Positions 11,019-34,831 of a stretch of 64,000 bases of DNA are shown one piece after another; position 1 is the stretch's first letter; each line of letters starts with the position of its first letter. Made by a program: the position numbers and the translations under genes. Location: the NCBI GenBank assembly GCA_963836045.1, contig CAWIIC010000003.1, positions 2,854 through 66,853 of the forward strand. Reading direction: 5' to 3'. The DNA is from an uncultured Pseudomonadota bacterium. GTDB taxonomy: Bacteria; Chloroflexota; UBA5177; JAJPKF01. The notes under the pieces are model-generated. The model made no database searches, was not told where the DNA came from, and worked only from the letters and a program-made list of their open reading frames with translations.

Positions 11019-11110
11019 GGCTGCAACGAGTATCGTGCCTCGCGTCTAATTGGCCGTGCTTGTTCTCATACTGCGTTGGCCGCAAGCGCGAACGAGACCC
11101 GTGACTATCT
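11019..11110 (+). repeat. Badly decayed tRNA-3'-portion module (Met-CAU-like)
   Basis: GTTCTCATACTGCGTTGGCCGCAAGCGCGAACGAGACCC (11062-) aligns with GTTCTCATAATCCCTTGGTCGCTGGTTCGAATCCGGCC of the 23.5-kb module. GGCTGCAACGAG upstream resembles the GGCTGCAAAAC arm repeat. Confidence 0.35.
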
Positions 11111-11141
11111 ACTGTGCCACTCTCCACCCAGGCGGAAAAAC

Positions 11142-11466
11142 TAATGCAATAGGTAATGCCAGGCCGAAAAGTAATGCAATACGTAATGCAAAACGAGTGA
11201 TCTACCGGAGTCTAGGAGCGTCCAGCGTGATTGCCGATGTCCACGAATCGTTTGCGGAACGCCATGTTTGGACTCACTTGGAAACGCCTGGATACAATGA
11301 GGTCGGTTTGCTAAACCGCTAAGGGGGTAACGCCCTTCGAGGGTTCGAATCCCTCCCTCTCCGCCACAGCCCTTTATTCCAGCCAAAATGCTGTCGGTAT
11401 CCTGCTCACTTCCGGTCGCGATCTCGTCTAGTTAACGCGCAAACACTGCAAAAGTACTGCAAAAGT
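11142..11466 (+). repeat. tRNA-3'-portion module, Ser(GCU) type, with flanking direct repeats (att-like)
   Basis: GTAATGCA(A) occurs 4x at 11142-11191. The core at 11303-11366 reads TCGGT-TTGCTAA-ACCGC, then a long variable arm with a 5-bp stem, GAGGG-TTCGAAT-CCCTC, and CCTCTCC-G-CCA. ACTGCAAAAGT occurs 2x at 11445-11466. There is no canonical D arm, and the candidate 5' acceptor strand pairs only 5/7. Confidence 0.7.
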
Positions 11467-11547
11467 TTCTTCACCCCGGGAACGTGAGGTAATGGCAGCA
11501 CAGCAACCCAGGTCCGGTACTCTTCCACCAGAAGCGGTCCACGGCTA

Positions 11548-12255
11548 TTGGATCAGATGTTCGCCGTCTGGATCATGCCGTCGCTCGTTGCAAGAGGTTT
11601 GACGCTCGAACGGTCTGAAATATCCCAGGCGTTGATTCTGCTAATACCTTCCATGCCTCCCACAGTGCATATCAACTCAGAGGCGGAGTTGGTCGCAGTG
11701 TTTGCTGCCGCAACCCGAGACATTTCACCGGGAGAACCGATCACTGGAGACGACGTCACAGAACTGGTTGGGATCCGTCCCCGCGAGGACCCCGGTGACT
11801 CCGGCTGGCTAGCATTCGCGACTGTCGGAAGCGAAATCATTGTTGGATGGGACGGCCGACGCAACCGCAAGAGCGCATCCCGACTCGTTGATCGAGCTCG
11901 CGAATTCCTTGCATGCGCCATCGACTCCGTGAGCAATGGCCGATTAGCGCCGGCGGTGGAGTGCGCATTCGCAGCCGCAGAACTAGGTGTCAAAGCTGAC
12001 ATGTTTCTTATGTTTGATCGACCGACGACGAAGCACTGGGAACGGGCCAACTGGTGGTCCGAGTGGGAACGGCTCGGAAACGCTCCGGACGGGACGGCAA
12101 GTACGCTGAGCCGTCTCTATTCTGAGCGTCCAAGTGCTCGATACGCCGAATCCCAAGTCAATGTTGATCCAGCCGAGATGTCATCATTGCTGGAATCGGT
12201 CTCGGTCCTGATCGAGCATGTGGCTGAACGGATCGCCGTCGAGCTGGTGCCCTAA
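11548..12255 (+). CDS. Hypothetical protein with HEPN-like C-terminal helical region
   Basis: The C-terminal half (ASRLVDRAREFLACAIDSVSNGRLAPAVECAFAAAELGVKADMFL...HWERANWW...RLYSERPSARYAE...LLESVSVLIEHV) follows the HEPN helix pattern. I cannot point to a clear R-x4-6-H motif. Confidence 0.4.
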   Translation: MDQMFAVWIMPSLVARGLTLERSEISQALILLIPSMPPTVHINSEAELVAVFAAATRDISPGEPITGDDVTELVGIRPREDPGDSGWLAFATVGSEIIVGWDGRRNRKSASRLVDRAREFLACAIDSVSNGRLAPAVECAFAAAELGVKADMFLMFDRPTTKHWERANWWSEWERLGNAPDGTASTLSRLYSERPSARYAESQVNVDPAEMSSLLESVSVLIEHVAERIAVELVP

Positions 12256-12268
12256 CTACTAGGTGGCG

Positions 12269-13000
12269 TCACTCAAGTTCGGGTTCACTCCGAGGCTTGC
12301 TGAACAGGGCATCCACGCGGTCGGCTGCATCTTTGTGTAGCGTGGGCAAGACGTGGCTGTAGGTGCCCAGCGTCAAGCTAATCGTGCTGTGACCCAACAT
12401 CTCTTGCACGACGCGTGGATGAATGCCTTCAGCAAGAAGTTGCGACGCGGCTGTGTGTCGTAGGTCGTGAACGCGGATGCGGGACAGGCTGGCCTTCTGC
12501 TTTTCGCACACCAATTTCGAGCGCGCGGACTTTCCGTCACCTGCCCAATGTGCGATGTATCCGAAAGAATTTTGACTCGAGTCGATGCCCAGTTCGTGGC
12601 AGACGGCGTGAATGCCGCATGAGTTCGCGCCAACTCCTATCGAAAGCGCATCCAGCGTAGCGAACACTGACGGAGTTGCTCGATCACTGCATTTCTCGAT
12701 GGATGGCGGCAACGTCAATGGCCCTGAAGGGCACCAGTGCAACACAAACTCCAAGGAAACGTCCCACATCACTCAATAGATGGAAGTGTTCCAACTGAAA
12801 CGTCTCGAGTCGATGACAGCGGCGGCACCTTCTGCGGTAGCGGTATAGCGTCGCTGTCGTGATCCAAACGCATTCGGGGGAACATGACTTCCAACCCGAA
12901 GGTCCGGCGTTCTGGGGTCCCCGCCAGTTGTTGAACACTCGATCACGCTGATACGCATTCGATGACAGCGCGATCGGTCCTTCGATTAGCTGGTGAGCTT
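12269..13000 (-). pseudogene. Tyrosine recombinase (phage-type integrase) remnant
   Basis: The C-terminal catalytic blocks are intact (VHDLRHTAASQLLAEGIHPRVVQEMLGHSTISLTLGTYSHV). The box I region is degenerate (ALSIGVGANS, where TGLR..E is expected). Upstream parts are scattered over two other frames (12773-12958, 12684-13124). Confidence 0.75.
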
Positions 13001-13091
13001 CAGCCTGACCGGATGGGCAACCCGTCCGTCGGCTCGTCGTAGAGGAAGGATTTGGCCCACTCGTTGGGGGTCTCGCTTGTACACTGGAAGT

Positions 13092-13797
13092 ATGGCGCAG
13101 TGCACAGCACCTGTACGCGGCCACCGTTCATCGGCCGCTGCTGCGAATTGTCCTGCTTGCGGGGGACGGGGATACTACCGCTCTTCCTACTCCTACTCTC
13201 CGCCCGTCTCGTCTTACCGGAGCGGGTCGTCATTCGGTGGGGCCGGTTCAAGCGGCGGCAGGTCCTCCGGCGGTGGGAGATCGCGTCGGACTAGGGCTGG
13301 CGGATCGGTCTCGTACAGCCCAACCGAGTGGCGCTCCATCGAACCCCTCGCTCGCAAGGCCGTCGAGCAATCGCGCGAGCACCCAGACCGTCGGGACCTT
13401 TTCTTATGCCATGCATGGGACGATCGAGAGGGCAGCGCCTCTGAGTTGTACAACCGCCTGCAATCCAATGGCGCGTCGGTCTGGTTCAGCGAGAAGGATG
13501 TTCCCCTCGGCAAGCAGTTGATCCGTGAGATCGACAAGGGGCTCAAGAACTCTCGCGTCGGAATCGTGCTGGTGACCCCGGCGCTGCTCAAGAGCATCGA
13601 TGGAAAAGGAACTCTCCGTGCTGCTCGCGACCGGCCGGGTTATCCCCGTTGCGCATGGGACCACCTTCGAGGCACTGCGAGAGGTCAGCCCGATGCTGGC
13701 GTCGCACGCGGGACTGAACACGGCAGATTCGTCGCTGGCGGACGTGGCCGCCAAGGTCGCCGCAGCAGCAGCGGCGCTAGCCGACGACGGGGTCTAA
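13092..13797 (+). pseudogene. TIR-domain protein with Cys-pair N-terminus and Gly/Ser-rich linker; one frame break at ~13603-13610
   Basis: The order is MAQCTAPVRGHRSSAAAANCPACGGRG, a low-complexity SSYSYSPPVSSYRSGSSFGGAGSSGGRSSGGGRSRR linker, then a TIR_2-like block (DLFLCHAWDDREGSASELYNRLQSNGASVWFSEKDVPLGKQLIREIDKGLKNSRVGIVLVTPALLKS). The conserved tail ELSVLLATGRVIPVAHGTTFEALREVSPMLAS lies in the frame of ORF 13600-13797. Confidence 0.75.
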
Positions 13798-14199
13798 CGC
13801 GGTTATAGTGGCGCCGCGAACCACGGTCCGGTCGGCCCCTGCGCGGTGACCGGTCTGGTGCTGACTCCCCGCGGGCGATGGATCGATCCCTCTCATGGGC
13901 CAAGGATGCGACGTCGGGGAAGGGCTGACGAACGCCGACGACTGATCACGCAACGAGCCGAGCCGTGGAGCATCCCACTACGCCCCTCGATAAGCGGCAC
14001 AGCCTGGTCCATGCAACCCGAAGGTCTGGGTCGCTGTCCCTTCAGTCGGGTTTCTGGGGACCAGAGCTTGGGACCGACGGCATCCGGTTGCGAGTCAGCA
14101 AACGGTCGCGATTGAATCCGTTTCGGAGAGTTCCGTCGACCCAGTCTTGATAGCGGGTTCGTAATACAAATTCGAAAGTGGACTATACCAGATCCGCAT

Positions 14200-14365
14200 G
14201 GCTGCAAAACGGCTGCAAAACACGATGGAGGAACATGGATGTTCAGGGACAATCGCGGTCTGAGCTCCACAGAATTACGCCAGAAATGGATGTTGACGGA
14301 TGACTGCGGACCGATGACATGGAACTTCTAATCCGATGGTCGCCGCAGGCGCTGCATCAAGGTCC
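14200..14365 (+). repeat. Truncated tRNA-3'-portion module (identity unclear)
   Basis: GGCTGCAAAAC occurs 2x (14200-14221), followed by the GATGTTCAGG block shared with the 23.4-kb module. Then comes CTTCTAATCCGATGGTCGCCGCAGG (14325-), which aligns with GTTCTTTTAATCCGTTGGTTCCGGG of the Lys-type module. The T arm and acceptor are missing. Confidence 0.45.
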
Positions 14366-14367
14366 AG

Positions 14368-14649
14368 TACTGCAAGACGTACTGCAAAAGGAGACCGTCC
14401 AGATACATCTAGGTGCGGCCAGTCACCAATGCCGTTGCGCACTTTTGGCGTCTCCGCTGGTCTCATGGATCGCTATGGATGCGCCTGGAGGAGCGAGATT
14501 CGGATTGCTAATCCGCTGTGGGGAGTAATCTCTATTGCGGGTTCGAATCCCTACCTATCCGCCACAGCCCTTTCTTACGGCGACAAAAACGACCGATTCG
14601 GTTCTGCGTTACGTCGTTTCGTTCTACTTTGGGACCAAGTACTGCAAAG
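14368..14649 (+). repeat. tRNA-3'-portion module, Ser(GCU) type, with flanking direct repeats (att-like)
   Basis: TACTGCAAGACG/TACTGCAAAAGG at 14368-14391. The core at 14500-14564 reads TCGGA-TTGCTAA-TCCGC, a long variable region, GGGTTCGAATCCC (T stem imperfect), and CCTATCC-G-CCA. The downstream CAGCCCTTT is shared with the 11.3-kb copy. GTACTGCAAAG lies at 14639-14649. Confidence 0.65.
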
Positions 14650-14861
14650 CCTTGAGAGTTCCTGCGGAGCTGTGGTGACATGAGGTAGTTAGACACAGAT
14701 GTACGGCAACGTGCGAAGCTAGGAATCAGACGTGGACGGAGCGCCTACTGTCACAAAGACTGACCTGTTACAAGATTCGCGGTCACGGAAATCCATGAGA
14801 CCCCAACTGGATTCTGAGCGGTGATGCCGTTGAGACATGGCATATCGAGCTTGTTGGTGGC

Positions 14862-16376
14862 GTGGAGAGCGACACCGCCCACTTCTCTCTCTATCTTGGT
14901 GAAAGCGAGTCTCCGGAACCGCCATGGGTGGGTTTCTTGCGATCGGAGTTTCGCGATCTCCGCCCGGTTCCGGCGAGAAGCAATCTCGGGGCGGTGCTTC
15001 TCGTTCGACTCGCCGGCGAAGGTGAAGGCGAAGTCTTTGCATACGCCTTCGGATATGGTCGCCTGTTTCTGAATCGTCGGCGAATCGATCGCAGTTGGGG
15101 ATTGCGCGCCGCCCTAAATCTGACGAACCATGAACAACTTAAGTCGCTCACAACGAAGATCGTTGGCAGTAACACGCTGCACATGCAAAGTACTGCGACA
15201 AGGGATGACGCGGTCTTCACGTTCGAAATCGACACCGGGCGCAGTCTTTTGGGCGCCATAGAAGGACGGACACTTGATCCGGAAGGCTGGGGTAATCGCA
15301 TCTCAGGTGGGGATGCCGTGAAGTTCGCCCCATCAGTTTCCGTTCGCGAATTGGAGGAAGCGTGTCGAGCACTATTGATCGCACGGCGCGCAGACGACTA
15401 TAAGGCACATATTCCGTGGGCCGACAACATGTCTGAAGTGGACAACCTCGAGCTACTCGAAGAGTTGTCCTCCGCATCTATAGGCGAGATTCGGGCAAAT
15501 TCTGGAAAGTTTGAGATAGTCGCGCCGGCCATCCTCACCAACCAGGACTACGAGTACTTTCAGTACTCGCACGCGCGTGACCGCCAGCACGGGGTCCCGC
15601 GACGTGAGTTGCGCCTTATCGACTATTTGCAATATGTAAATCGCGGATTGCTGGACGTGGCAACCCTGCAGCGTCACGAGATCAGGGCCGTAAGTACTGA
15701 GGGGGAGGACGTTGAATCGTGGTCGGTGTGGAATTGCATTTCGGGCGTGCTCGAATTGCGCGGACAGTCTTTTGTGTTGGACGAAGGCAAGTTCTATCAA
15801 GTAGATAGTGACTTTCTCGCGGGATTGGATGGCTCGATCGATGGCCTCGACTCGCACCATCTGGAACTCCCGACACTCGCGGTTGGTGAAGCGGAAGAAG
15901 CGTATCTGCTACGAATTGCTGAAGACATGGCTGACATGCTCCTGCTGGATCAAAGACTCGCACGAATTGCTGGGGAAGATCCGATTGAAGTGTGCGACCT
16001 ACTTCGGACTTCCGGAGAACTCATTCACATGAAGAAGGGCTTTACGGGTGCCGGGTTGAGTCACCTATGTAGACAAGCGACAGGCTCAGCCGAAGCCTTG
16101 GCGACGAGCCCCGCCTTCCGGGACGCCGTCAGGGCCCGCATGGTGCGAATTGCCGATGACGGTGGTGGGGAAGTCATGATCTGGGTGGCGGGTCTGCTGA
16201 GGGATCCGTTTGTCCCGACGGAAGTAACTTTTGCCATCGCTGGGCATTGGGCAGGGCGAAGTGCATCCGCAGGACTACCGTTTGGAAGCAAGATGGGTTT
16301 GCGCACGGCCGCCGAAAATCTCCGCAGACGTGGATTCGTCCCGCGATTGATTCGAGTCGAAATCGAACGACCTTAG
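14862..16376 (+). CDS. TIGR04141/DUF6119-like 'sporadically distributed' protein (function unknown)
   Basis: A 504-aa intact ORF. The C-terminal block IEVCDLLRTSGELIHMKKGFTGAGLSHLCRQATGSAEAL matches my recollection of that family's signature (E.cD...g.liHvK..s.s..lSHL..Q). This is a family assignment from memory, not a search. Confidence 0.55.
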   Translation: MESDTAHFSLYLGESESPEPPWVGFLRSEFRDLRPVPARSNLGAVLLVRLAGEGEGEVFAYAFGYGRLFLNRRRIDRSWGLRAALNLTNHEQLKSLTTKIVGSNTLHMQSTATRDDAVFTFEIDTGRSLLGAIEGRTLDPEGWGNRISGGDAVKFAPSVSVRELEEACRALLIARRADDYKAHIPWADNMSEVDNLELLEELSSASIGEIRANSGKFEIVAPAILTNQDYEYFQYSHARDRQHGVPRRELRLIDYLQYVNRGLLDVATLQRHEIRAVSTEGEDVESWSVWNCISGVLELRGQSFVLDEGKFYQVDSDFLAGLDGSIDGLDSHHLELPTLAVGEAEEAYLLRIAEDMADMLLLDQRLARIAGEDPIEVCDLLRTSGELIHMKKGFTGAGLSHLCRQATGSAEALATSPAFRDAVRARMVRIADDGGGEVMIWVAGLLRDPFVPTEVTFAIAGHWAGRSASAGLPFGSKMGLRTAAENLRRRGFVPRLIRVEIERP

Positions 16377-16418
16377 TTCCAGCCGCCTCGGCTTGCGCTA
16401 GAGGGTTGCTTGCCAGCT

Positions 16419-16772
16419 TTAGATTTCTGGAAATCGACGACTAGGTTCGCCTGGCCCTTGGACCCAGCTTGGTCGGGCTGGCTGATGACCGCCCTCTGTC
16501 AGTCCGAACGCCGTGCACGCATGGCTCAACTTGCTTCGAATGTCAAGGGCCCGCTCGGTGGTGATCACACCTTCGAGCGGGTCGAGATGGTACTCGGATA
16601 CGACTTCGTCGATTTGATCTTGCGTTACACCAAGCTGCTCTGCAAGTGTTTCTTTGGTAAACCCTTCCACGATGTGCGCCTCGCCCCTTCGCAACTGAAG
16701 GTGTCTGCCCAGATTATCGCCGGTCCGGTTGCTGCAAAGGCTTCGAAGTGCGCGACGTGCTGACATTTGCAT
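16419..16772 (-). CDS. Small XRE-like HTH protein
   Basis: GFTKETLAEQLGVTQDQIDEVVSE looks like an HTH. The gene is convergent with the TIGR04141-like gene. Its ATG lies 5 nt from the GTACAGT tandem repeat (16778-16796). Confidence 0.5.
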   Translation of the reverse strand: MQMSARRALRSLCSNRTGDNLGRHLQLRRGEAHIVEGFTKETLAEQLGVTQDQIDEVVSEYHLDPLEGVITTERALDIRSKLSHACTAFGLTEGGHQPARPSWVQGPGEPSRRFPEI

Positions 16773-16777
16773 CGTTT

Positions 16778-16960
16778 GTACAGTGATTCGTACAGTAATG
16801 CGACGCGTCTAGGGATCTGCAGGGGCATCCAGGGGTGCATGCAATGTAGATAACTTGGCGTTATTCCGCCGTTGTTGGACATCAAGAAACGCCATTGGAC
16901 GTCCTACAAGTGTTCTCATAATACCTTGGTCGCTGTGCCGAATCCAGCCGGGCCCCAACC
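16778..16960 (+). repeat. tRNA-3'-portion module, Met(CAU) type, decayed
   Basis: GTACAGT 2x (16778-16796). The core at 16915-16957 reads CTCATAA-TACCT-TGGTC-GCTGT-GCCGAAT-CCAGC-CGGGCCC, a mutated copy of 23475-23519. The downstream CTTGTTTGCCC...GCCAAAAACAGC parallels the 23.5-kb copy. Confidence 0.6.
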
Positions 16961-17036
16961 TAACCTACATCCTTGTTTGCCCAGCAGTTTAGCCAAAAAC
17001 AGCATATCAACAATGGATTGCAATGCGGCCATCTAC

Positions 17037-17882
17037 TCAACATGAATGCTGATTTTGAGATTTGTGCAGTAGATGTACAGTGATGCCGACGCGGGATGGA
17101 CCAGCGGCCGCGTTCAGTACAGCACCAGCTTGTGCCTTATTGACCACCTTCCCGTTCTGAAATTCAATGTAGGCGTTAGCACCGCTGTTCCCCTCGGTCC
17201 AGGAGTAGATTGCAGTTTGGCTATCCCCGGATCCCGACTGCTCTGAGAGTGTCCCCGTTCCGAGCAATGACTGCACTTGCGCGAGCGTCATACCGATCTG
17301 CACAGCATCAAAGCTTCTTAGAGTCAATGATCCAGGGGTGGCGGGCTGCGGTGTAGTGGGTGTCGAAGGGACTGCGTCGAACGGTACGGTAATGGCTAGC
17401 GGTTCACTGACCAGATCAGCACTGATCTGCATTGTGCGTATATTCGATGTCGGTGGTGATGGAGTTCCTAAGGTCGCTACGATATCTCCCGGCCAGGTAC
17501 TCAGTTCTCCTGCAGTTTGTGTTTGCGCAGCATCGTAAAAGAGATCAATGGTCGCGGCACAGTAACTGTCGAGGTGGTTCGCAAAGAAGAAGTCCAACGC
17601 ATCACTAAGCCGTGTGTAACTCGATGCGTTTTCACTCACGACCGCTGCGTAAAATGGTGATTCGCAGATGCCGGGTTGCGCGCCATTTTGATGGGTCACC
17701 ACGTTGAGGTCGCTGACATTTCCTTTCGCAGCAATCAATCGTAAGTCAGCCGCGCTCCTCGGGACAGTCAAACTGGCTTGCGTCGAAGCGGGTTGTGAAG
17801 GCGTCGGCGTCTGCTTCTGGGGGTTGGAGTTCAATGCGGTTCCTGATGAGCCGCATCCAACTAGGGCCATGACCACTGCCAA
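17037..17882 (-). CDS. Lipoprotein with C-terminal DUF3862/BLIP-like domain
   Basis: Lipobox MAVVMALVGC. The C-terminus (FDAVQIGMTLAQVQSLLGTGTLSEQSG...AIYSWTEGNSGANAYIEFQNGKVVNKAQAG) fits the small beta-rich lipoprotein-domain pattern. Confidence 0.6.
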   Translation of the reverse strand: MAVVMALVGCGSSGTALNSNPQKQTPTPSQPASTQASLTVPRSAADLRLIAAKGNVSDLNVVTHQNGAQPGICESPFYAAVVSENASSYTRLSDALDFFFANHLDSYCAATIDLFYDAAQTQTAGELSTWPGDIVATLGTPSPPTSNIRTMQISADLVSEPLAITVPFDAVPSTPTTPQPATPGSLTLRSFDAVQIGMTLAQVQSLLGTGTLSEQSGSGDSQTAIYSWTEGNSGANAYIEFQNGKVVNKAQAGAVLNAAAGPSRVGITVHLLHKSQNQHSC

Positions 17883-17966
17883 ACCACGACAATCTCATGG
17901 AGCAATGGTAGCTAAGTGTTTACAGCTAGGCAGAGCTCTGTCAGCCGAGTCCGAAGCTGCTCCTTT

Positions 17967-18110
17967 GTCTCGCCTTCTGCAAGCAGTCTGAGTGTGTCAG
18001 AGGAAATCGAACACACTCAGAAATCGGGGAATTCCGTCACTCTTGGACAGACGTGGACACACTCAGACGTCATCGATGCGGTTTGCTAAACCGCTTAAGA
18101 TGCCTAGCAC
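17967..18110 (+). repeat. Fragmentary tRNA-3'-portion module: Ser(GCU) anticodon arm only
   Basis: AGACGTGGACACACTCAGACGTCATCGAT aligns with AGACGTGGAGAGACACCCCAAGATGCCTGATCAG of the 23.4-kb module. A perfect arm GCGGT-TTGCTAA-ACCGC follows (18078-18094). The variable arm is partly recognisable, and the T arm and acceptor are absent. ACACACTCAGA occurs twice direct and once inverted (17981-18067). Confidence 0.5.
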
Positions 18111-18116
18111 GCCTAG

Positions 18117-18900: not shown

Positions 18901-19028
18901 GCTCTTAGTGTAGGTGGCGCGATTCCAATTGCGTGTCGGGCTTAACAATAAGTGAGAAGGTTGGGGGTGTACAGTCGATGTACAGTAATGCGGTACTCGA
19001 ATAGCATCAATCAATCTCATTGCCGGTG

Positions 19029-19973
19029 TTAGTCCCGACAATGCCCAATGCGAGGATTTCGCTTCCAGAAGTACCTGAATAGGTATCGCGGAGACGTACA
19101 TAACGACACCCGCTTTTGCTGACGGAGATTGGTACTCCATCCGTGGCCACGCATTCCTAGCAGTGCGAAGCCGTCCACCGCGTAGTACACATCGTAGGAA
19201 CCTCCGGGATACACAAACCGCAGGTCGTAGGCCGCTACGTGATCAAAGAGTCGACCGTGGACTAGGCGATATCCCGTTCCATTGCCGGTGCTTATGAAAC
19301 CATCACGGCGAGCTGTTGCCGCCAGACCTGCTGCGATACCAGGATCGTCCACGCCATGTATGAAGTACGCAGTAAGGTCGCCCCTGTGGCTGCGCAACCT
19401 GGGTCCCTGCCAGACCAACGCGAAGTTCATGGCGGTATTCATCGGCAAGCCCATGTTGTGAGCGAGGCGAAAGAAGTAAACGACCTTACTAGTCTGGGTA
19501 ACTGTCTCTAGTCCCCTCACCACGTATGTTCCGTGGATTCTCATCGACCAGACACGAAATGTAAGGTCGCGGCACCTCGACAAGCCTTGACACTTCACGC
19601 GCTCAGAGTAAACGCGTTCGAGCACCTGACCGGGCTTTGGTGTAGCAGCCCTTGCAGCGCGAACCAGAACCGTCCCCGCGGAAACCGGAGTTGGGCTCTG
19701 AGCGACTGAGTTAATAAGCACGGTTGTAACAATTGCTGTAGCTACGATGGCTGCGCACAAAGTGAAGCGCCACGGGGGAGCCCGAAGACCACGGAGCAGC
19801 TTGTCAGGATTCGCGGCCTGGGGTCGATCCGTGAGACGGCTCACAAACGCATCGACAGAAGCTGAGGGATGGCCCTGTGTGCAAATGTGACCAAGCATTT
19901 CCACCAAATGTCGCCGGTCGGCTGAAGAATTCGGCGTTATGAGGTCGTCATATCCGTGGTCAACAGGTCTCAT
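19029..19973 (-). CDS. Putative anti-sigma factor (single-pass membrane protein)
   Basis: Overlaps the 3' end of the ECF sigma gene. One TM helix (FTLCAAIVATAIVTTVLI). The extracytoplasmic domain is of unknown family. The call rests on position only. Confidence 0.5.
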   Translation of the reverse strand: MRPVDHGYDDLITPNSSADRRHLVEMLGHICTQGHPSASVDAFVSRLTDRPQAANPDKLLRGLRAPPWRFTLCAAIVATAIVTTVLINSVAQSPTPVSAGTVLVRAARAATPKPGQVLERVYSERVKCQGLSRCRDLTFRVWSMRIHGTYVVRGLETVTQTSKVVYFFRLAHNMGLPMNTAMNFALVWQGPRLRSHRGDLTAYFIHGVDDPGIAAGLAATARRDGFISTGNGTGYRLVHGRLFDHVAAYDLRFVYPGGSYDVYYAVDGFALLGMRGHGWSTNLRQQKRVSLCTSPRYLFRYFWKRNPRIGHCRD

Positions 19974-20475
19974 TGATCCTCCTCTCTATTTGCTGCAAAG
20001 TGCGCGATAGCTGCTTTCGAGTAGCTTCAGGCGTTCTCTTTATCAGTCGAGCAATATCAGGAATCGTCAGTCCCGCTGCAAACCGAAGAGCGATGAGGTC
20101 CTGTTTGTCTTTGGGGAGATCGGAGACGATGGAGCGAACTTGGCGATATTCGTCGGCATACTCGACCTCGGATTCGGTGTCGTCGCTCGATGCGATATCA
20201 GGCAGCGGAGTAGTGAGCCAACCGCGTCGTCGGGCCTGCCGGTGACGGTCGACAACGAGGTGTCGGGCAATGGTAAACAGCCAGACTGCAGTAGCGTCGC
20301 ATTGGGCATCGGGTTTCGAGAGCGCAGCCCAAGCTTTCGCAAAAGTCTGTTGGGTTAAATCATCGGCATCCTCCGGAGATCCCGTCCTAGTCCGGAAGTA
20401 CCAATAAACGCGCTCGCGATGTAGACGATAGAAGTCCTGGAAGGCCTCTGTTCCAGGGTTCTGTGCATCAACCAT
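19960..20475 (-). CDS. ECF-type sigma-70 factor
   Basis: Region 2 (DADDLTQQTFAKAWAAL, WLFTIARHLVVDRHR) and region 4 (LPKDKQDLIALRFAAGLTIPDIARLIKRTPEATRKQLSRTLQQI). Confidence 0.85.
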   Translation of the reverse strand: MVDAQNPGTEAFQDFYRLHRERVYWYFRTRTGSPEDADDLTQQTFAKAWAALSKPDAQCDATAVWLFTIARHLVVDRHRQARRRGWLTTPLPDIASSDDTESEVEYADEYRQVRSIVSDLPKDKQDLIALRFAAGLTIPDIARLIKRTPEATRKQLSRTLQQIERRINETC

Positions 20476-20606
20476 CCGACCCGCTGCTCTCAGAAGCTTG
20501 CCCCTTGATTATCAGTCGTACCAGCACGTACCTGATTGGGTGTCCACCAGGGTCGGCTCGACCCCACTATTAAATAGAACGCTCGATACGGCCAAACCGG
20601 ACATCA

Positions 20607-22043
20607 ATGTGTAGTGAGGAAACGCCTGAAATAGAGCACTGTTTGCTGCCCGAATCGGCGCGTTTGTCGGACCGTTATTTATGTGTATTGGAAAGGCGCA
20701 TAGCATGGGTAGTGACAGACCTCCCAATCGAGAAGAGTCAGTCTCTCTGCCGCTATCGTCTCCTCATCGGGGACAACCAGAAGAGGATTCTCGTCGACGC
20801 CCGCAATTCCAAGGTCCGGCTACCAACCTGGCTCACGGGGCGCGGTCACCCCTTGCAAGCGACCGATCACATCAACAAGTGGACCCTGTCGCGAACGGGC
20901 GTGAGGGCAATCACTCTGCGCTGCATCTCGACGGGTCCGAGCCCAGATGGCGAGTCCATCGAGCGGCGGTACGAACTTGCGGCACTTCGCCCGGTCGATC
21001 CGGCAGAAGGATTTCTTTGGATCTCGAGGGATGAGGTGCCCGAACTCGCTACCCCTTCAGAACGGAATCTGGCCGAAACACACTTTTCGGATTTCGCTTC
21101 TCCGCCCGCTGCCCGCCGCCCGTGGGCAAGGCCGGGTTGGTGGGAGACTGCCGCCGCATGGATCCAGCAGCAGCTTCAGGTGGCGGGACATAGGGGCGAA
21201 CCAAAGATAACGCAAATCAGTAGCTGGGAACGTGGCTGTGTCTTGCGAGTCGTTAGTCCAGCTGCGACGCTCTACTTCAAAGCATTGCCGCTGCAGTTGG
21301 CCCATGAGTTAGGCGTGCTGCGCAGCTTGGCGATGGAGAATCCTAGTCTGGTTCCAAAGCTCGTAGCGGCCGATGAGGACTGCCGTTGGATCCTCACAGA
21401 GAAGATGCCTGGTCGCGCGCTTAGCGTTCGGGATGACGTGGATCAGTGGCGTACTGCCTGCTCTGTCCTCGCCAAGTTGCAGGTCGGCAGCATCGCCACC
21501 GCAGAGCTGTTTCGAGCGGACCTTCCCTCTCGTGGCGTGGACTGGATGCTCAACAAGTTAGCCGCTGATCCCTTTCGACGCGCTGATATTTCGCCCGAGT
21601 TTCGGGCGCAGCTTGGAGCGCGACTCACTGGCCTGAGGTCGCAGGCCCGACGACTGGCGGCGCTTTCTCTTCCGTCGGCAATCGAACATGGCGACCTAAT
21701 TCCCAGCAATATCTTCATCCATGCGGGAAATGCAGTGATCTTCGACTGGACCGACGCCTCCGTCTCCATCCCCTTCTTCAGCCTATGGTCGCTGCTCGAC
21801 GCAATCGGAACTGATGTAGCCCACCTCGGCACAAAGACTGCGCGGAAAGCTCTGGTAGACGCCTACTTTCGCAAATGGAACAAGCTAGCGAGCGACGCAA
21901 CGCTATCCGAAGCCTGGCGCCTCACGCAGCGGCTCGCACCGCTCCACTTGGCACTGCGCTACCAGTTCGACATCCTGCCGGCCGTGGAGTCGCGCTGGGA
22001 AATGGAAAACATGGTGCCCTACTTCCTCCACAAGCTAGCCTGA
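20607..22043 (+). CDS. Phosphotransferase-family (APH/choline-kinase-like) protein
   Basis: Catalytic block IEHGDLIPSNIFIHAGNAVIFDWTDASVSIPFFSL (the HGDL..N...DW.D pattern). The N-terminal ~150 aa are unassigned and the start codon is uncertain. Confidence 0.7.
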   Translation: MCSEETPEIEHCLLPESARLSDRYLCVLERRIAWVVTDLPIEKSQSLCRYRLLIGDNQKRILVDARNSKVRLPTWLTGRGHPLQATDHINKWTLSRTGVRAITLRCISTGPSPDGESIERRYELAALRPVDPAEGFLWISRDEVPELATPSERNLAETHFSDFASPPAARRPWARPGWWETAAAWIQQQLQVAGHRGEPKITQISSWERGCVLRVVSPAATLYFKALPLQLAHELGVLRSLAMENPSLVPKLVAADEDCRWILTEKMPGRALSVRDDVDQWRTACSVLAKLQVGSIATAELFRADLPSRGVDWMLNKLAADPFRRADISPEFRAQLGARLTGLRSQARRLAALSLPSAIEHGDLIPSNIFIHAGNAVIFDWTDASVSIPFFSLWSLLDAIGTDVAHLGTKTARKALVDAYFRKWNKLASDATLSEAWRLTQRLAPLHLALRYQFDILPAVESRWEMENMVPYFLHKLA

Positions 22044-22459
22044 CCGGAGAGTATTTGGACGGCCATAGATTGTTCAGGAATCTGAGCCGTCGGGATCTAT
22101 ATGTTCGCGAATCGTTAAATTGCTGCCAGCTATTGAACGCGGTGGCATGCTGTGAATAGGTCCGGGGGGGACGAGCAAACCGCGTCCGACGTCCAGATAT
22201 TCAGTGTTAGGCAAAGACATGCCTTAATGCTAACGGGTCGTTGTTGTTCTCAGGTCCATCAACGTACGAATGAGTTTGGCCAGGTCACGTGTCTGAAATA
22301 ATTGGTGAGCCGCGATGGCATTGCATAATCGTGGAAACAAGCGCTGGATGAAATGCGGCTCGCGCGTACGCCAGTAGAAAGTGACGTGATCCGATCACCG
22401 ACATTGTCAGTCTGCTTACTGAACTTGGTATCTCTGGCGCTGAATACGAGAGCCAACTC

Positions 22460-23228
22460 GTGCAGACTCGGTTTCGGCAGAAGCTTGTTGACGCCTGGAG
22501 AATCCTTCCGGGCACTGCAATCTTGGAGGTTGGGTGCGGTCAGGGAGACATGACACTCGTGCTCGCGGCCGCAACGGGTGCAGATGGGCACGTCACTGCA
22601 ATTGACGCAGCAGACGAAACTTCGGGCTCACCGCTTACCTTTGCGAAGGCCACGGCGCGCATTCGCCGATCTCGTGTTGGAAAAGCAGTCTCCTTTCGAT
22701 TCGGCGTCGATGTTCTCGAGCCTGAAGGTGGTCCTGCCACGATCTCACTACGACTGCGCTGTGCTGGCTCACTCGCTTTGGTATTTCGCTTCCATGGACT
22801 TGTTGCAACGAACTCTCAAGCGAATGAAGGAGTTGGCCGATCGGCTTTATCTCTCAGAGTGGGACCTGACACCGACAAGGAAATCCCAGCTGCCACACTT
22901 TGCAGCGGCCCTAGTCCAGGGATGGACATCTGCCTGGAAACCCGATCGCCGCTGCAATATTCAGACACTTATGAGTCGACAGGCGATCGAGCGGCTTGTT
23001 CTGGATGCCGGCTGGACAATCGAAACCAATGTCTCCGTCGACAGCTCAGACCTTCAGGACGGCAGATGGGAGGTTCTCAACTGTCTCCAGATACTCAGCT
23101 CAGGAATCGGTAGGGACGACTCAACGACTATTGAGGGCCTGGACTTGGATAATGTGAAAATACTTCTCCAGCAGTCAGCGTCTGAGGCTCTGCCATCGTT
23201 TGCAATGCGTTGCCACCAACCGCAATGA
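22460..23228 (+). pseudogene. Class I SAM-dependent methyltransferase, one frame break at ~22730
   Basis: Motif I ILEVGCGQGD and VTAIDAAD lie in ORF 22460-23113. The continuation RSHYDCAVLAHSLWYFAS... lies in ORF 22578-23228. Confidence 0.7.
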
Positions 23229-23338
23229 GATGCGACCAGTTTGGCGATGACCATCGCGCACCTCTCCGCGGACGGTTCTTCAGGGCACGCATAACACCTT
23301 CGTCACCACGCGAGGAAGGACGGTCGGCAGCGCCACCT

Positions 23339-23640
23339 GTACAGCAAGCCGTACAGCAAACGTGACGTCTGCCGATGTTCAGGCATGTCCGCGGAAGTAG
23401 GGCTCAGTTGAGATGTGGCTAAAGAACGCCACAACTAGACGTGGAGAGACACCCCAAGATGCCTGATCAGCGTTCTCATAATCCCTTGGTCGCTGGTTCG
23501 AATCCGGCCGGGCCCACCAAATCTCGACTGCTTGTTTCTCCCGGGATAACGCCACAAACAGCGCTTAACCTAACCACATTTCGGGAGCATTCAACTTAAC
23601 GATAAGCACGGATTTTCGTCTTGTACAGTTGTTGTACAGT
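23339..23640 (+). repeat. tRNA-3'-portion module, Met(CAU) type, best preserved, with flanking direct repeats (att-like)
   Basis: GTACAGCAA 2x (23339-23359). The core at 23475-23519 reads CTCATAA-TCCCT-TGGTC-GCTGG-TTCGAAT-CCGGC-CGGGCCC-A-CCA. GTACAGT 2x at 23623-23640. The 5 nt before the loop (GCGTT) cannot pair with TCCCT, and no GGGCCCG 5' strand is present. Confidence 0.7.
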
Positions 23641-24000
23641 AATGGCAATTCCGAGCGACCGAGACGGCATGCTCTTAGTCTTCCGGTGTGATGCGGAGGT
23701 GTCAATCAAGGACTTTCACGAAACGCTTAGGCTGAGTCCAAGAGATGACAGTGATGGGGGTTTAACGTTCCCGCTGAGTTGACATCGTTCACGGTCGTCA
23801 GTATGTCGAGATGTGTGCAACCCGCTGACCGAATTTCTGTGGAGGCACGCGCTCACCCTCGATCAGAGGCAACGCGTTGGCGGCGAGTTGAGTAAGTCCT
23901 GCAGTGCGCAGATCCATGCTGGCGTCAGTAAGCAGACGATCTCGCCCACGAACCGTCCAACCGATTCAGCCGCATACGCTCAAGCGACCATGCGAGCCGG

Positions 24001-24612
24001 TCACGAATCTAAAGCGGGGTGCCAGCGTCCCGATCGTATCTGCGGTCTGGAAGGCCCAAGGCTGGTTCGCCCCGTCAGGTATAGCAGCCCGTCCCAGGGA
24101 TCCTGGTCCTTGGGAAGATTAGACAAGGGAAAGAGGCGAGCGCAGATCTTGGAGCAGACGGTTCTATCAGGATGTATCTTTCCATGAAGGCCCTGACAGA
24201 TGTCCCAGCCGTGAACATAGAGTTCCATGCCAGCCAATGCGTTAAAAGCCATCGCATCTGCCAGTCCCCATGGGTGATAGGCATGTGCACTGGGGCCGAC
24301 AGTGCGCAGGGTGGCCACCATCATGCTACTCGCGGCCTGGATGAACTCCACGGCGTCTTTGGAATCAGCACCGCTCGTCAGCCTGGCTCGGAACTCGACA
24401 TAGTGGTCGGTAGGTCCCGCAGCAAGTTGCCCAGCATAGGCCAAACAGTCATCAGCCATGTGACTCGCCGTTCGCAGGCAGCTCCACCGAAGTGAGCCTG
24501 CTCGAACTGACCAATCCTTTCCCGTCAGGGGACTCAGAGAGTCTAGCGTTTGGTCAATGGCAGTTTGCAGATCCAATGGCGTGAGGAATTGGGACATCGC
24601 CACGTCGCTCAA
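24001..24612 (-). CDS. DinB/MDMPI_N-like (mycothiol-dependent maleylpyruvate isomerase N-terminal domain) protein
   Basis: DWSVRAGSLRWSCLRTASHMADDCLAYAGQLAAGP... matches the DinB_2/TIGR03083-type helix-bundle pattern. Confidence 0.65.
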   Translation of the reverse strand: MSDVAMSQFLTPLDLQTAIDQTLDSLSPLTGKDWSVRAGSLRWSCLRTASHMADDCLAYAGQLAAGPTDHYVEFRARLTSGADSKDAVEFIQAASSMMVATLRTVGPSAHAYHPWGLADAMAFNALAGMELYVHGWDICQGLHGKIHPDRTVCSKICARLFPLSNLPKDQDPWDGLLYLTGRTSLGPSRPQIRSGRWHPALDS

Positions 24613-25153
24613 CTCCTGGGCAGGTGCTGCAAAAGTCTACAGGCTGTTCCTGGCTGCATCTCGCATGTCAGGAATCCCTCTTGACCAGAGCGTCAAGGCT
24701 TCCTCCTTTGTCACATCGCCGCGCTCGCCCTTCACCCACCAGTCGCGCGCCGGATTCGTTTCAAGTATGGGTCCGCCGTCTTGTGATGGCCGGTGAGCGA
24801 GGCGCAGCTCACAATGTTCCCTGCCGGCAGACGAGCTTCGGACAGCGAAGCCCTGGACCCACTCGACCCAAACCACAGTGAACAGCACACCACCACGTCT
24901 GTCCCACCTCCTATGCTGGGAGAGTATCCCGCACCCGCAGCCAAACCATCCAGGCGCGCTGCCCAACTCACTTGTCTACCATCATCCAGGGGTAAGTACA
25001 AGGACGACAGGAAGATCGGCCAGGAACCGGTTGAGAGGACTTACCTCTTCCTGTCACGCTGGTCACGCTGGCATTCACCAGCCAAAGATTGACTGCCCTG
25101 CAGCGTGCTAGGCTTTAGCGTGGTTTGCTCCGAAGTCAAAACAGGAGTTACCA

Positions 25154-25876
25154 ATGTACAGGATTGTGCTGGCGTTTCCCGTGGTGCCCGGTAAGAGCGA
25201 AGCCGAGGTCACCGCAATCGCCGACGTATTCCGTTCTCGTCCTGTGGAATACCGAGAGGCACGGCAGCGCATTGGTATCACGCGGGAACGAGCCTATTAC
25301 CAGAAGTCACCGATGGGCGATTTCGTGGTCGCTTACATCGAGAGCGAGCGCCCCTACAGTGAGGCGGCCGCGAGCCTGGTGTCGTCCACGCAGGACATCG
25401 ATCATCAGTTCGTACGCCACGTCAACGAAGTGCACGGTGTTGATCTCACCCAGCCGCCTGCAGGTCCCGCACCCGAAACGGTTGCTGAGTGGTTTGATCC
25501 GAACGCTTCCGGCCGCCTCCGTGGCATGGCCTTCTGCGCACCCCTTCTTCCTGGCCGCTACGATGCCGGCAAAGCATGGGCACACGAAGCCTTTGTCACC
25601 CGTCGTGACGAGCTGACTGCATCCCGTCGCGCGTGGGGTCAGACCGGTGAAGTCGTCACCGTGATGCAGACGCCGCACGGCGATATCTGCTGCGTCTACC
25701 TGGAAGGCACTGACCCTGTGGAGGGCAACCGGAAGTTCGCTGCCTCGAATACCGAATACGACCGCTGGTTCAAGGATCAGCTGAAGACGCTGTTTCCGCC
25801 GCAAGTCGACTTCAATCAGCCGGTCCCATCAGTGACCGAGATTTTCGACTCAGCGTCGCTCTTGGTCGCAAGCTAA
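25154..25876 (+). CDS. Hypothetical protein made of two tandem ~115-aa repeats
   Basis: Good RBS (AGGAG 7 nt upstream). Both halves share the pattern ..P..PGK/R....A......R..E...SR...G...E......P.GD....Y.E...P. No family recognised. Confidence 0.5.
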   Translation: MYRIVLAFPVVPGKSEAEVTAIADVFRSRPVEYREARQRIGITRERAYYQKSPMGDFVVAYIESERPYSEAAASLVSSTQDIDHQFVRHVNEVHGVDLTQPPAGPAPETVAEWFDPNASGRLRGMAFCAPLLPGRYDAGKAWAHEAFVTRRDELTASRRAWGQTGEVVTVMQTPHGDICCVYLEGTDPVEGNRKFAASNTEYDRWFKDQLKTLFPPQVDFNQPVPSVTEIFDSASLLVAS

Positions 25877-26096
25877 GGGAAGCTACCGGGCGCGGGCGTG
25901 CAGGATGGCATGCCACTCGCGACACGGAGTATGGGTTGGGGAGCTACGATCAACGACGGCCTCAGCCCGCGGATGCTTTCGTAGCTGACTGGCCGGAACG
26001 AGTGTCGATCGATGGGACTGGATTGCTAAGTGGACCGCGCTGGAAACACGGCGTAGAACCTCCAAATCCGTGGTGGCGCTGTCGGAAGCAGGACCT

Positions 26097-26370
26097 GTAC
26101 AGCAATCTGTACAGCAAAAGTGCCGATCTACCGATGTCCAGACGCGTCCATGGAGCTATACATCAGGTGAAATCGGCGGAAACACGCCACTCCTGGACAG
26201 TGGTAACGCGCGCAGACGCCGTATCAGCGTTCTTTTAATCCGTTGGTTCCGGGTTCGAGTCCCGGCGCCCTCACCAGCCGTTTCTGGCGGAATGATGCCA
26301 GGGTCAGTGAAGCGTCCGAGTCGGAGGAACTCGATAATAAGTCGCTCGTCCAGCGAAAGTACAGCAAAAG
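26097..26370 (+). repeat. tRNA-3'-portion module, Lys(UUU) type, with flanking direct repeats (att-like)
   Basis: GTACAGCAA 2x (26097-26117). The core at 26232-26276 reads CTTTTAA-TCCGT-TGGTT-CCGGG-TTCGAGT-CCCGG-CGCCCTC-A-CCA. GTACAGCAAAAG at 26359-26370. The upstream ~130 nt align with the 23.4-kb module along their whole length. Confidence 0.7.
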
Positions 26371-31289: not shown

Positions 31290-31298
31290 GTCGTTCGC

Positions 31299-34776: not shown

Positions 34777-34831
34777 TGGTGCTCGGGGAGCTTTGCTAGC
34801 CGGCTGGGGCGCACAGTGCCGGATAGTTCGA

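Follow-up and report, generated by a model that had tools for sequence, protein, structure and literature searches.

Phased pairs of short direct repeats around orphan tRNA fragments in a Chloroflexota island array are probably arm-type sites of tyrosine integrases

The window analysed here, a stretch of 64 kb from an uncultured member of the Chloroflexota, contains between 11 and 27 kb a row of five modules (A to E). Each is centred on an orphan tRNA 3' fragment that reaches from the anticodon loop to the CCA end (two of Ser-GCU, two of Met and one of Lys-UUU, in addition to decayed copies) and is accompanied by short repeated words upstream (P arm) and downstream (P' arm). The fragments correspond to nt 29-92 of tRNA-Ser(GCU) and nt 32-76 of tRNA-Met, and ahead of the loop the sequence has no relation to tRNA. 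Between these joints lie cargo genes for HEPN, TIR, DUF6119, ECF sigma, APH kinase, methyltransferase, DinB-like and DUF6176 proteins. The only integrase sequence in the window is a C-terminal remnant of about 70 aa, and no intact integrase or excisionase was found there, so nothing in cis is able to use the sites. The features of the row are as follows, with upstream distances counted from the anticodon loop.

11061..11105, plus strand: decayed Met-type core, remnant of a tRNA-Met 3' fragment (BLAST within the window with modules C and D as queries; sequence)
11141..11161, plus strand: module A, distal upstream pair CTAATGCAA / GTAATGCCA, imperfect, period 12
11171..11194, plus strand: module A, P-arm pair, GTAATGCAA twice, -136/-124, period 12
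11269..11293, plus strand: module A, TGGAC/TGGAT boxes at -38 and -18
11304..11366, plus strand: module A, core, tRNA-Ser(GCU) 3' fragment with 98% identity to the real gene (C10:163635) over its nt 29-92
11443..11466, plus strand: module A, P'-arm pair ACACTGCAAAAG / GTACTGCAAAAG, period 11, +79 past the tRNA end
12284..12499, minus strand: integrase remnant, C-terminal ~70 aa (HDLRHTAA...GHS...Y), 62-67% identity to intact integrases of the order
14200..14221, plus strand: module B, far-upstream pair, GGCTGCAAAAC twice, period 11, -304/-293; possibly the P' pair of another decayed joint
14367..14390, plus strand: module B, P-arm pair GTACTGCAAGAC / GTACTGCAAAAG, -137/-125, period 12
14466..14480, plus strand: module B, TGGAT boxes at -38 and -28
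14500..14564, plus strand: module B, core, diverged 3' fragment resembling tRNA-Ser(GCU), 78% to the fragment in module A
14639..14649, plus strand: module B, lone P' word GTACTGCAAAG, +75 past the tRNA end
16778..16796, plus strand: module C, P-arm pair, GTACAGT twice, -136/-124, period 12
16911..16960, plus strand: module C, core, degenerate tRNA-Met 3' fragment; TGGAC boxes at -38 (16876) and -18 (16896)
17075..17124, plus strand: module C, downstream single words GTACAGT (17075) and GTACAGCA (17117)
18044..18097, plus strand: truncated joint of Ser(GCU) type, in which TGGACA boxes (-38/-28) are followed by GGTTTGCTAAACCGCTTAAG and then by unrelated sequence
18968..18988, plus strand: isolated arm pair, TGTACAGT twice, period 11
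23339..23359, plus strand: module D, P-arm pair, GTACAGCAA twice, -135/-123, period 12
23471..23519, plus strand: module D, core, 3' fragment of tRNA-Met(CAU), matching the tRNA-Met gene C4:157106 at 91%; TAGAC box at -38 (23436)
23621..23640, plus strand: module D, P'-arm pair, TTGTACAGT twice, period 11, +104 past the tRNA end
26095..26120, plus strand: module E, P-arm pair, CTGTACAGCAA twice, -134/-122, period 12
26228..26276, plus strand: module E, core, 3' fragment resembling tRNA-Lys(UUU), with a TGGAC box at -37 (26194)
26348..26370, plus strand: module E, P' pair of period 11 at +83, with GTCCAGCGAAA decayed and GTACAGCAAAAG intact

An earlier sequence-only reading had listed arm repeats between positions 11142 and 26370, and every one of them was recovered where it had been placed: upstream GGCTGCAAAAC at 14200 and 14211, GTACTGCAA at 14367 and 14379, GTACAGT at 16778 and 16790, and GTACAGCAA in two pairs (23339/23351 and 26097/26109); downstream ACTGCAAAAGT at 11445 and 11456, a single GTACTGCAAAG at 14639, and GTACAGT at 23623 and 23634. 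The fourfold repeat described at about 11142-11191 does consist of four copies, but only those of GTAATGCAA at 11171 and 11183 are exact, as CTAATGCAA (11141) and GTAATGCCA (11153) carry one mismatch each. Similarly, the word GTACAGCAAAAG at 26359 is present but not single: its decayed partner GTCCAGCGAAA lies directly upstream at 26348, which makes the P' site of module E a period-11 pair. The proposed period of 11-12 bp was borne out and depends on the arm, being 12 in the upstream pairs close to the core, and 11 both in downstream pairs and in the pair lying far upstream in module B. That list lacks a period-11 pair of TGTACAGT at 18968 as well as GTACAG words that stand alone at 17075 and 17117. 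Instead of the two word families that had been suggested, the words form one continuum, in which a single base separates the GTACTGCAAAAG of modules A and B from the GTACAGCAAAAG of module E. In module D the P word GTACAGCAA is unlike the P' word GTACAGT.

The upstream pair begins 134-139 nt ahead of the anticodon loop in all five modules, and the same distance is found, with differing words, at six further att sites (the E' joint of the sister strain, C4:153640, C8:92741, C10:132113, C10:145333 and C12:16990). The combination of fixed geometry and drifting sequence noticed earlier was thus confirmed, with an upstream pair constant within about 3 nt of the loop across words and tRNAs. The downstream pair begins 71-115 nt past the tRNA end. 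Words are present on both sides of the core, as P and P' pairs in modules A, D and E and as a P pair with single P' words in modules B and C. Repeats of this kind might be operators, iterons or promoter elements for cargo genes or replication, unrelated to recombination, and at the loci L037, L064 and L087 the pair does lie between the tRNA and the integrase start, from where it could autoregulate int. However, the geometry is tied to the tRNA fragment and to no ORF, the cargo is different in every module and the pair is located past the integrase stop codon in most loci, and we consider such a regulatory role very unlikely. It is similarly improbable that the modules are genes for structured tRNA-like RNAs with the repeats within the transcript. 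The tRNA 3' halves retain the T arm and CCA, and a compensated change distinguishes the anticodon stem of module A from that of module B, but such a change is equally expected from tRNA genes of different former hosts. Moreover, no Rfam family was detected at threshold, only partial tRNA-like matches, and other sequence takes the place of the 5' half precisely from the anticodon loop, a hallmark of integrase crossover.

Exact pairs of at least 8 nt with period 11 or 12 are concentrated in the row, with 8 of the 10 in the 64-kb window inside 11-27 kb. When the whole genome was searched for exact pairs of at least 9 nt at offsets of 10-13, 16 of 206 were located within 350 nt of tRNA genes or fragments, a zone covering 0.97% of the genome in which about 1.3 would be expected, and all 16 had a period of 11 or 12. 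For pairs of the form GTACAG-N5-6-GTACAG, 8 of 9 in the genome lie at att modules (0.7 expected). The tandem words are therefore not distributed at similar density throughout the genome but concentrated at tRNA/att modules.

The same layout is found beside intact integrases. In the tRNA-Ser(UGA) island on contig C10, the P' pair (two copies of TTGCGCTCCAA at +81) is followed by an intact integrase, and the far fragment of this island carries the P pair, two copies of GCGCTCCATTT at -139. In the tRNA-Lys(CUU) array on contig C8, P and P' words match within one island and differ between neighbouring islands. An island with int and xis in the sister strain (98.8% identical) shows the same arm-pair layout; at the equivalent of position 18968 this strain has a pair of GCTGCAAAAC and a Leu(UAA)-type core in place of the TGTACAGT pair, and its joint paralogous to module E possesses a P' pair of GTACAGCAAA. 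Among loci of the same order (n=13), a pair with period 11-12 is located 48-94 nt past a tRNA that adjoins an integrase homolog, and the metagenomic loci L124, L155 and L160 show the same layout beside intact integrases. In a collection of genomes from several phyla, the tRNA faces the 3' end of the integrase at 40 of 80 loci, and 28 of these 40 carry the pair; at these collection loci pairs occur at 4.2 per kb within the integrase-tRNA spacer versus 0.21 per kb outside. In dozens of elements the P' pair adjoins the integrase stop codon. Apart from the shortness of the words nothing favours chance or low-complexity sequence as an explanation of the pattern, and in view of the uniform period and the excess of pairs near tRNAs, the clustering of GTACAG pairs at modules and the 20-fold spacer enrichment across phyla, it has next to no probability.

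Integrases of this family contain about 70 aa ahead of their SAM-like core-binding domain, and this N-terminus was not recognised by Pfam models. An AlphaFold model of the intact integrase from the sister strain (pLDDT 90.9) contains three strands and a helix at residues 18-66, and with Foldseek the model aligned over 365-383 columns to full-length lambda Int as compared to about 295 for Int(75-356), at a sequence identity to lambda Int of only about 18%. The predicted fold suggests that integrases of the family possess a lambda-Int-like arm-binding N-terminal domain. In a Mantel test, word similarity was correlated with integrase similarity (r=0.435, p=2e-4), and the correlation with the N-terminal 70 aa alone was r=0.48. 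Although their tRNA targets differ, the three closest pairs of integrases are also the three whose words resemble each other most, and on a tree of 45 integrases the word classes require 6 label changes versus 13.8 after shuffling, with 0 of 200 shuffles as low. When metagenomic integrases were retrieved purely by the word GTACWGCAA, 6 of 9 fell into one clade (support 98/99). These data are in agreement with the proposal that the words co-evolve with diverging recombinases, as word similarity tracks integrase similarity independently of the tRNA target. The mapping of words to integrases is not one-to-one, since GTACWGCAA is present in at least two or three integrase lineages, and words are not a clean lineage marker, since the integrase remnant beside module A is placed outside the metagenomic GTACTGCAA clade.

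The earlier reading had left open whether recombinases or directionality factors bind the arm words. In lambda and L5, the sites for recombination directionality factors (RDFs) likewise consist of short direct repeats in phase, and HTH_17 genes adjoin intact integrases at C10, at C8 and in the sister strain, so that the doubled words might be sites for an RDF (Xis-like HTH_17 protein) or a host bending protein and not for integrase. We regard this as unlikely, because both arms carry the words, whereas sites for an RDF are normally confined to one arm, because the P' pair borders the 3' end of the integrase and because word variation follows the integrase, above all its N-terminus. The TGGAC boxes at -38/-28/-18 are the better candidate for an RDF or host-factor site, as they are found on the P side only and are conserved among elements with different arm words.

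Taken together, the doubled 9-12-nt words are very probably arm-type sites for the N-terminal domain of heterobivalent tyrosine integrases at attP-like joints, and of the two kinds of binding protein proposed earlier the recombinase is favoured and the directionality factor much less likely. The source integrases would belong to one large tRNA-targeting family of Chloroflexota, Actinomycetota and other phyla. Each joint would consist of a P-arm pair at -136/-124, phased TGGAC boxes, a crossover core formed by the anticodon loop and the 3' half of the tRNA, and a P'-arm pair 70-115 nt past the tRNA. By analogy with lambda and L5, each arm of a working element would carry two integrase N-domains on neighbouring sites separated by one helical turn, with the core bound by the catalytic domains, and the resulting bent intasome would determine the direction of integration or excision. 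The words would differ between modules because each module stems from another member of a group of related elements, with an integrase of distinct arm specificity, and the spacing would be kept because the architecture of the complex is conserved.

Such a design is known and ordinary; the present example is a clear one, and the design is common to a large integrase family across several phyla. In mycobacteriophages of Clusters J and K, L5 and Giles, direct pairs of 10-11-bp arm sites flank a tRNA-derived core, and arm words vary along with the Int N-terminus (PMC3706429, PMC3203893). The attP sites of these phages resemble the joints described here in a core made of the anticodon loop and the 3' tRNA part, in the flanking direct pairs, in words that differ between related integrases and track the Int N-terminus, and in an HTH_17-type excisionase beside int. 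In contrast, the host here is an uncultured member of the Chloroflexota, the elements are small islands or remnants and not phages, most joints have no integrase, and both the distances (-136/-124; +70 to +115) and the presence of TGGAC boxes are peculiar to this lineage, in which the sites are known from sequence. Lambda attP (P1, P2, P'1-P'3) shares with the joints a bivalent integrase whose N-terminal arm-binding domain is rich in strands (here predicted), arm sites on both sides of the core and a distance of about one helical turn between adjacent sites, but lambda targets no tRNA, and the number and orientation of its sites differ.

The elements of the window would be dead or cargo-only. 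Its cassettes are small, bounded by att sites and devoid of integrase and transfer genes over 64 kb, apart from the one 70-aa remnant, as is the case in CIMEs, suggesting that the row is an accretion zone of integrative-island remnants. CIMEs and tandem ICE/IME remnants (ICESt1 family; PMC5704250) and the tycheposons of Prochlorococcus (bioRxiv 10.1101/2020.12.28.424599) likewise form rows of integrase-less or decayed cassettes split by partial tRNA copies, with fragmented integrases and a content that varies by strain. Those arrays are anchored on one target gene with one att type repeated, whereas here Ser-GCU, Met and Lys-UUU joints (Leu-UAA in the sister strain) are interleaved. No full tRNA was found in the 64-kb window or in C3:1-82000, the real tRNA-Ser(GCU) and tRNA-Met genes sit on other contigs and a tRNA-Lys(UUU) gene is absent from the whole assembly. 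As no full tRNA is located at the end of the array, the joints are orphans, and their mixture is not predicted from simple tandem integration at one tRNA gene, which weakens the view of a simple tandem array but leaves the arm-site assignment untouched.

With low probability, the row might instead be a working cassette platform, in which the few intact integrases, together with HTH_17 factors, act in trans to capture, excise and exchange the cargo. The cassettes would then keep complete arm, core and TGGAC-box sites for integrases encoded elsewhere in the cell or on incoming elements, and the platform would be a tRNA-fragment-based, multi-specificity analogue of integrons or tycheposon satellites. 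Weak pointers in this direction are that the arm pairs are perfect to the letter in a row that has lost its integrase genes, and that two other arrays of the genome contain similar foreign-type orphan joints. The array also differs between the 98.8%-identical strains at or near joints, an indirect hint of mobilisation.

Each of the five modules (A to E) is an att-like joint centred on an orphan tRNA 3' fragment, and in every one of them this core runs from the anticodon loop to the CCA end. The anticodon loop is the exact point at which the tRNA 5' half gives way to other sequence, as is characteristic of integrases whose crossover lies in this loop. No full tRNA was found in the 64-kb window with ARAGORN, and comparison of the window with Rfam gave no curated RNA family, only partial tRNA-like matches; a match to a plastid tRNA-Ser-derived family was discarded as a trivial antisense match. 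The positions of the upstream pairs of short doubled words (P pairs) are listed below, with the first base of the anticodon-loop string as reference.

Cores and P pairs of the joints in the window
Module A: core matching nt 29-92 of the real tRNA-Ser(GCU) on contig C10 at 98% identity; P pair at -136/-124
Module B: core of a diverged Ser(GCU) type; P pair at -137/-125
Module C: core of a degenerate Met type; P pair at -136/-124
Module D: core 91% identical to nt 32-76 of a real tRNA-Met on contig C4; P pair at -135/-123
Module E: core of Lys(UUU) type; P pair at -134/-122
11061-11105: decayed extra joint, Met type
18044-18097: decayed extra joint, truncated Ser type

The downstream (P') pairs start 71-115 nt past the tRNA 3' end, and within the window the period of the pairs is 12 upstream and 11 downstream. 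Other att fragments of the genome have quite different words at the same positions (C8:92741, -137; C10:132113, -139; C10:145333, -137; C12:16990, -134; C4:153640, about -136), and in a 98.8%-identical sister strain the Lys(UUU) joint E', a paralog of module E, carries TTGGTGCTATG x2 at -136/-125. The constant pair positions, together with the loci of intact integrases described below, support the proposal of the sequence-only reading that the words are protein-binding arm sites of fixed geometry, and the repeats are very probably arm-type integrase sites of attP-like joints.

All repeats listed in that reading were recovered at their coordinates, although several descriptions had to be changed. 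Of four reported copies of GTAATGCAA, two are exact whereas the other two have one mismatch each. The supposedly single GTACAGCAAAAG at 26359 is a period-11 pair, because a decayed partner, GTCCAGCGAAA, lies directly upstream. The list lacked a TGTACAGT x2 pair at 18968, as well as GTACAG words that stand singly at 17075 and 17117. What had been described as two word families is one continuum, in which GTACTGCAAAAG of modules A and B and GTACAGCAAAAG of module E are one base apart. The arm word of module E (26095-26117) contains the 8-bp palindrome CTGTACAG, and its pair therefore also matches itself on the opposite strand.

In the source genome (5.14 Mb, 60% GC, 88.9% complete), where the window occupies C3:2854-66853, 206 exact repeats of at least 9 nt occur at offsets 10-13, and 16 of them are no more than 350 nt away from a tRNA gene or fragment, a space that makes up 0.97% of the genome. 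All 16 have a period of 11 or 12; half are in the window and half (8) elsewhere in the genome. The described arm pairs account for 8 of the 10 exact pairs of at least 8 nt with period 11 or 12 in the window. Eight of the nine GTACAG-N5-6-GTACAG pairs of the genome are located at att modules versus 0.7 expected, and TGCAA pairs outside the modules occur genome-wide at roughly chance level. The tandem words thus cluster at the modules, and an equal density throughout the genome does not hold, since the near-tRNA and GTACAG counts are far above expectation. At C5:81148-81202, two TGCAA-N6-TGCAA pairs are found on opposite strands less than 40 nt apart, with no tRNA or integrase match nearby.

The genome possesses only two intact tRNA-linked integrases, on contigs C10 and C8, and the layout is present at both. 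On C10, tRNA-Ser(UGA) is followed by TTGCGCTCCAA x2 at +81 and then by the integrase reading towards the tRNA, and the far fragment of this island has GCGCTCCATTT x2 at -139. In the tRNA-Lys(CUU) array on C8, the first island displays ACAACA-type words in both arms and the next one (1.8 kb) GCGCTGCA-type words in both arms. From these patterns it is evident that P and P' words match within one island and differ between neighbours at the same tRNA. A survey of 16 genomes of the order revealed 13 loci where a tRNA beside an integrase homolog is accompanied by a pair of period 11-12, located 48-94 nt past the tRNA end and with its own word at each locus. In a wider survey, 80 loci were found by integrase profile in contigs of one genome per species. 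The tRNA faces the integrase 3' end in 40 of them, which belong to Chloroflexota, Dormibacterota, Actinomycetota, Bacillota, Acidobacteriota, and other phyla, and 28 of these 40 have an exact pair of at least 8 nt with period 11 or 12 in the spacer between tRNA and integrase (4.2 pairs per kb in the spacer versus 0.21 per kb outside), 43-157 nt from the tRNA end. Three order-level loci (L011, L025, L029) show an alternative order, in which integrase, arm pair, and full tRNA follow each other in the same direction and the pair, opposite in orientation to the tRNA, precedes the tRNA 5' end by about 100 nt; the word at L025, GCTGCAAAAC, is the same as at window positions 14200-14221.

The integrase family comprises at least 1800 relatives at E<=1e-20, many annotated as Chloroflexota, and in its members about 70 residues precede the SAM-like core-binding domain. 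No arm-binding family was detected in these N-termini with Pfam, even at E<=10, and a PDB sequence search matched the core-binding and catalytic domains only, with Tn1549 Int as the best match. In an AlphaFold2 model of the intact 387-aa integrase of the sister strain, built from a 47-sequence alignment (mean pLDDT 90.9), residues 18-66 form three strands and a helix. Foldseek aligned 365-383 columns of the model with full-length lambda Int (1Z1B, 1Z1G, 5J0N) versus about 295 with Int(75-356). The N-terminal region may well be a lambda-type arm-binding domain, an assignment that the model supports but does not prove.

Among the order-level integrases (n=16), those of higher mutual identity have more similar arm words (Mantel r=0.435, p=2e-4). 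The three closest integrase pairs (62, 58, and 51% identity) are also the three most similar word pairs, although their target tRNAs differ (Lys/Met, Ser/Arg, and Ser/Arg). By integrase part, the correlation is 0.48 for the N-terminal 70 aa, 0.36 for the catalytic domain, and 0.32 for the core-binding domain, a ranking that is only suggestive because all three parts share one phylogeny. A metagenome scan for GTACWGCAA pairs yielded 80 loci, 16 of them with an integrase of the same family; in such loci (L124, L155, L160) the distance of the pair is often 37-106 nt to the integrase 3' end and about 48 nt to the end of a tRNA. On a maximum-likelihood tree of 45 integrases, five word classes need 6 changes versus 13.8 when shuffled (0 of 200 as low), and 6 of the 9 GTACWGCAA-linked integrases fall into a single clade (support 98/99), this word class having arisen at least two or three times. 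The Mantel correlation and the tree label test support the idea that the words co-evolve with diverging recombinases, and the mapping of words to integrases is heritable but not one-to-one. The one integrase trace in the 64 kb, a C-terminal remnant of about 70 aa (12284-12499, minus strand), had been considered as a member of the metagenomic GTACTGCAA clade but groups with the order's own integrases.

A second motif is present on the P side. Boxes of the form T[AG]GA[CT] at -38, -28, and -18 from the anticodon loop were detected in at least 13 of the 18 att modules of the genome (31 observed versus 3.4 expected, Poisson p about 1e-19), independently of both arm word and tRNA, and att fragments with such boxes are found on contigs C1, C5, C8, C10, C11, C12, and C14. 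Directly past the P pair of modules A, B, and E there are three more boxes (TGGAC/TAGAT), inverted and with 10-bp spacing, so that the P arm carries two box clusters of opposite orientation, separated by about 50 bp.

TGGAC boxes in the window
11269-11293: boxes upstream of core
14466-14480: boxes upstream of core
16876-16900: boxes upstream of core
18044-18058: boxes upstream of core
23436-23440: box upstream of core
26194-26198: box upstream of core
11197-11224: inverted boxes, minus-strand reading
14393-14411: inverted boxes, minus-strand reading
26122-26150: inverted boxes, minus-strand reading

As they are conserved in sequence, restricted to the P side, and phased at 10 bp, the boxes are better candidates than the arm words for sites of a directionality factor or host bending protein, that is, candidate excisionase or host-factor sites. 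HTH_17 genes adjoin both intact integrases of the genome, and the boxes are absent from the E' joint of the sister strain. An ACGCCA-like box occurs near -48. A (T)TCAGCCAAA(A)-like motif recurs about 10-25 nt past tRNA 3' ends, in real genes and att fragments alike (window 11380-11392 and 16985-17000; C10:163745, C1:52720, C10:305330, C11:107450).

Independent contigs cover modules B-E, though not A, and for most modules they largely exclude that the orphan joints were produced by mis-assembly of the metagenome-assembled genome. A Logan contig contains window positions 13566-18792 with modules B and C at 99.96% identity, and a 667-kb ENA contig (contig_37070, the sister strain) is collinear with 19028-35874, including modules D and E, at about 98.8% identity. 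For modules B-E the array is thus genuine, and it varies between closely related strains. The sister strain has an insertion sequence (HTH_23/DDE_3) just past module D with an 8-bp duplication (window 23726-23733), and its methyltransferase is intact (255 aa), whereas the window copy (22460-23228) is split in two frames (L032:6044-8572 for both differences). In place of window 18919-19027, where the window has the TGTACAGT x2 pair only, the sister strain carries 1.7 kb with GCTGCAAAAC x2, TGGAC boxes, a Leu(UAA)-type core, and a PRK/AAA_18 gene (L035, reverse-complemented coordinates 10802-12520), a module-level replacement between close strains. Left of window position 18109 the ENA contig is entirely different and includes an HTH_17 excisionase-like gene, the intact integrase, TTGGTGCTATG x2, a Lys(UUU) core, and GTACAGCAAA x2. 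The strain break points do not fall exactly on cores; they are near joints, about 15 nt off.

If the row had grown by simple tandem accretion at one tRNA, all joints would be of one type and one end would carry a full tRNA. This explanation was rejected, as the joints, all in a single orientation, are interleaved in the order Met, Ser, Ser, Met, Ser, Met, Lys, no full tRNA exists in C3:1-82000, and the host-like fragment of module A lies to the left of the diverged fragment of B. The match between P and P' words is closer inside modules B, C, and E than across the segments between modules; the joints therefore resemble whole attP sites and not hybrid joints. Orphan joints of foreign type, each with a dead integrase, are also found inside two other arrays of the genome.

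Foreign-type orphan joints in other arrays
C11:96673-109948: Arg(UCU) fragment at C11:107411 and integrase remnant, within a tRNA-Thr(GGU) island
C8:92727-120534: Arg-like fragment at C8:107686 and pseudo-integrase, within the tRNA-Lys(CUU) array

Such mixed joints might derive from composite elements with several int-attP modules, from circles entering by homologous recombination, or from low-fidelity exchange between anticodon loops. A tRNA-Lys(UUU) gene was not found in the 88.9%-complete assembly, and two Lys(UUU)-type fragments exist (module E and C10:305368). The module row is a strain-variable series of decayed or cargo-only integrative islands, and its orphan joints of mixed specificity might still be in use.

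The same arm-site design is known from mycobacteriophages and is found here in another phylum. In Cluster J phages the core is from tRNA-Leu, its left end lies in the anticodon loop, and on both sides there are pairs of imperfect 10-bp direct repeats, for which a role as arm-type sites was proposed (PMC3706429). Two pairs of 11-bp repeats are found in Cluster K phages, the pairs of L5 and Giles are in direct orientation, and among close integrases the arm words vary together with substitutions in the N-terminus (PMC3203893). Within the field of site-specific recombination the result is expected and not surprising, a well-documented case. For a very large and mostly unstudied integrase family it describes, with statistical support, how the att sites are built: one pair fixed at -136/-124, a second at +70 to +115, and words that are specific to each lineage and follow the integrase. 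This design can be used to delimit islands and predict attP sites, and can help to match orphan cassettes to integrases able to move them and to choose integrase/att pairs as genetic tools for phyla without any.

The cargo between the joints consists of genes for a HEPN protein, a frameshifted TIR protein, DUF6119 with an HTH gene, a BLIP-like lipoprotein, an ECF sigma factor, an APH-type kinase, the split methyltransferase, a DinB-like protein, and DUF6176. A look-up of identical proteins gave no exact match on record for the HEPN protein. The defence-type cargo (HEPN, TIR, DUF6119) of this genome thus resides in cassettes still bearing complete recombination sites. The defence-like part spans 11548-16376, with the HEPN gene, the frameshifted TIR-domain ORF (12993-13808), and the DUF6119 gene (14862-16376) with its convergent HTH gene, and a truncated HsdM N-terminus is found at 10102-10761.
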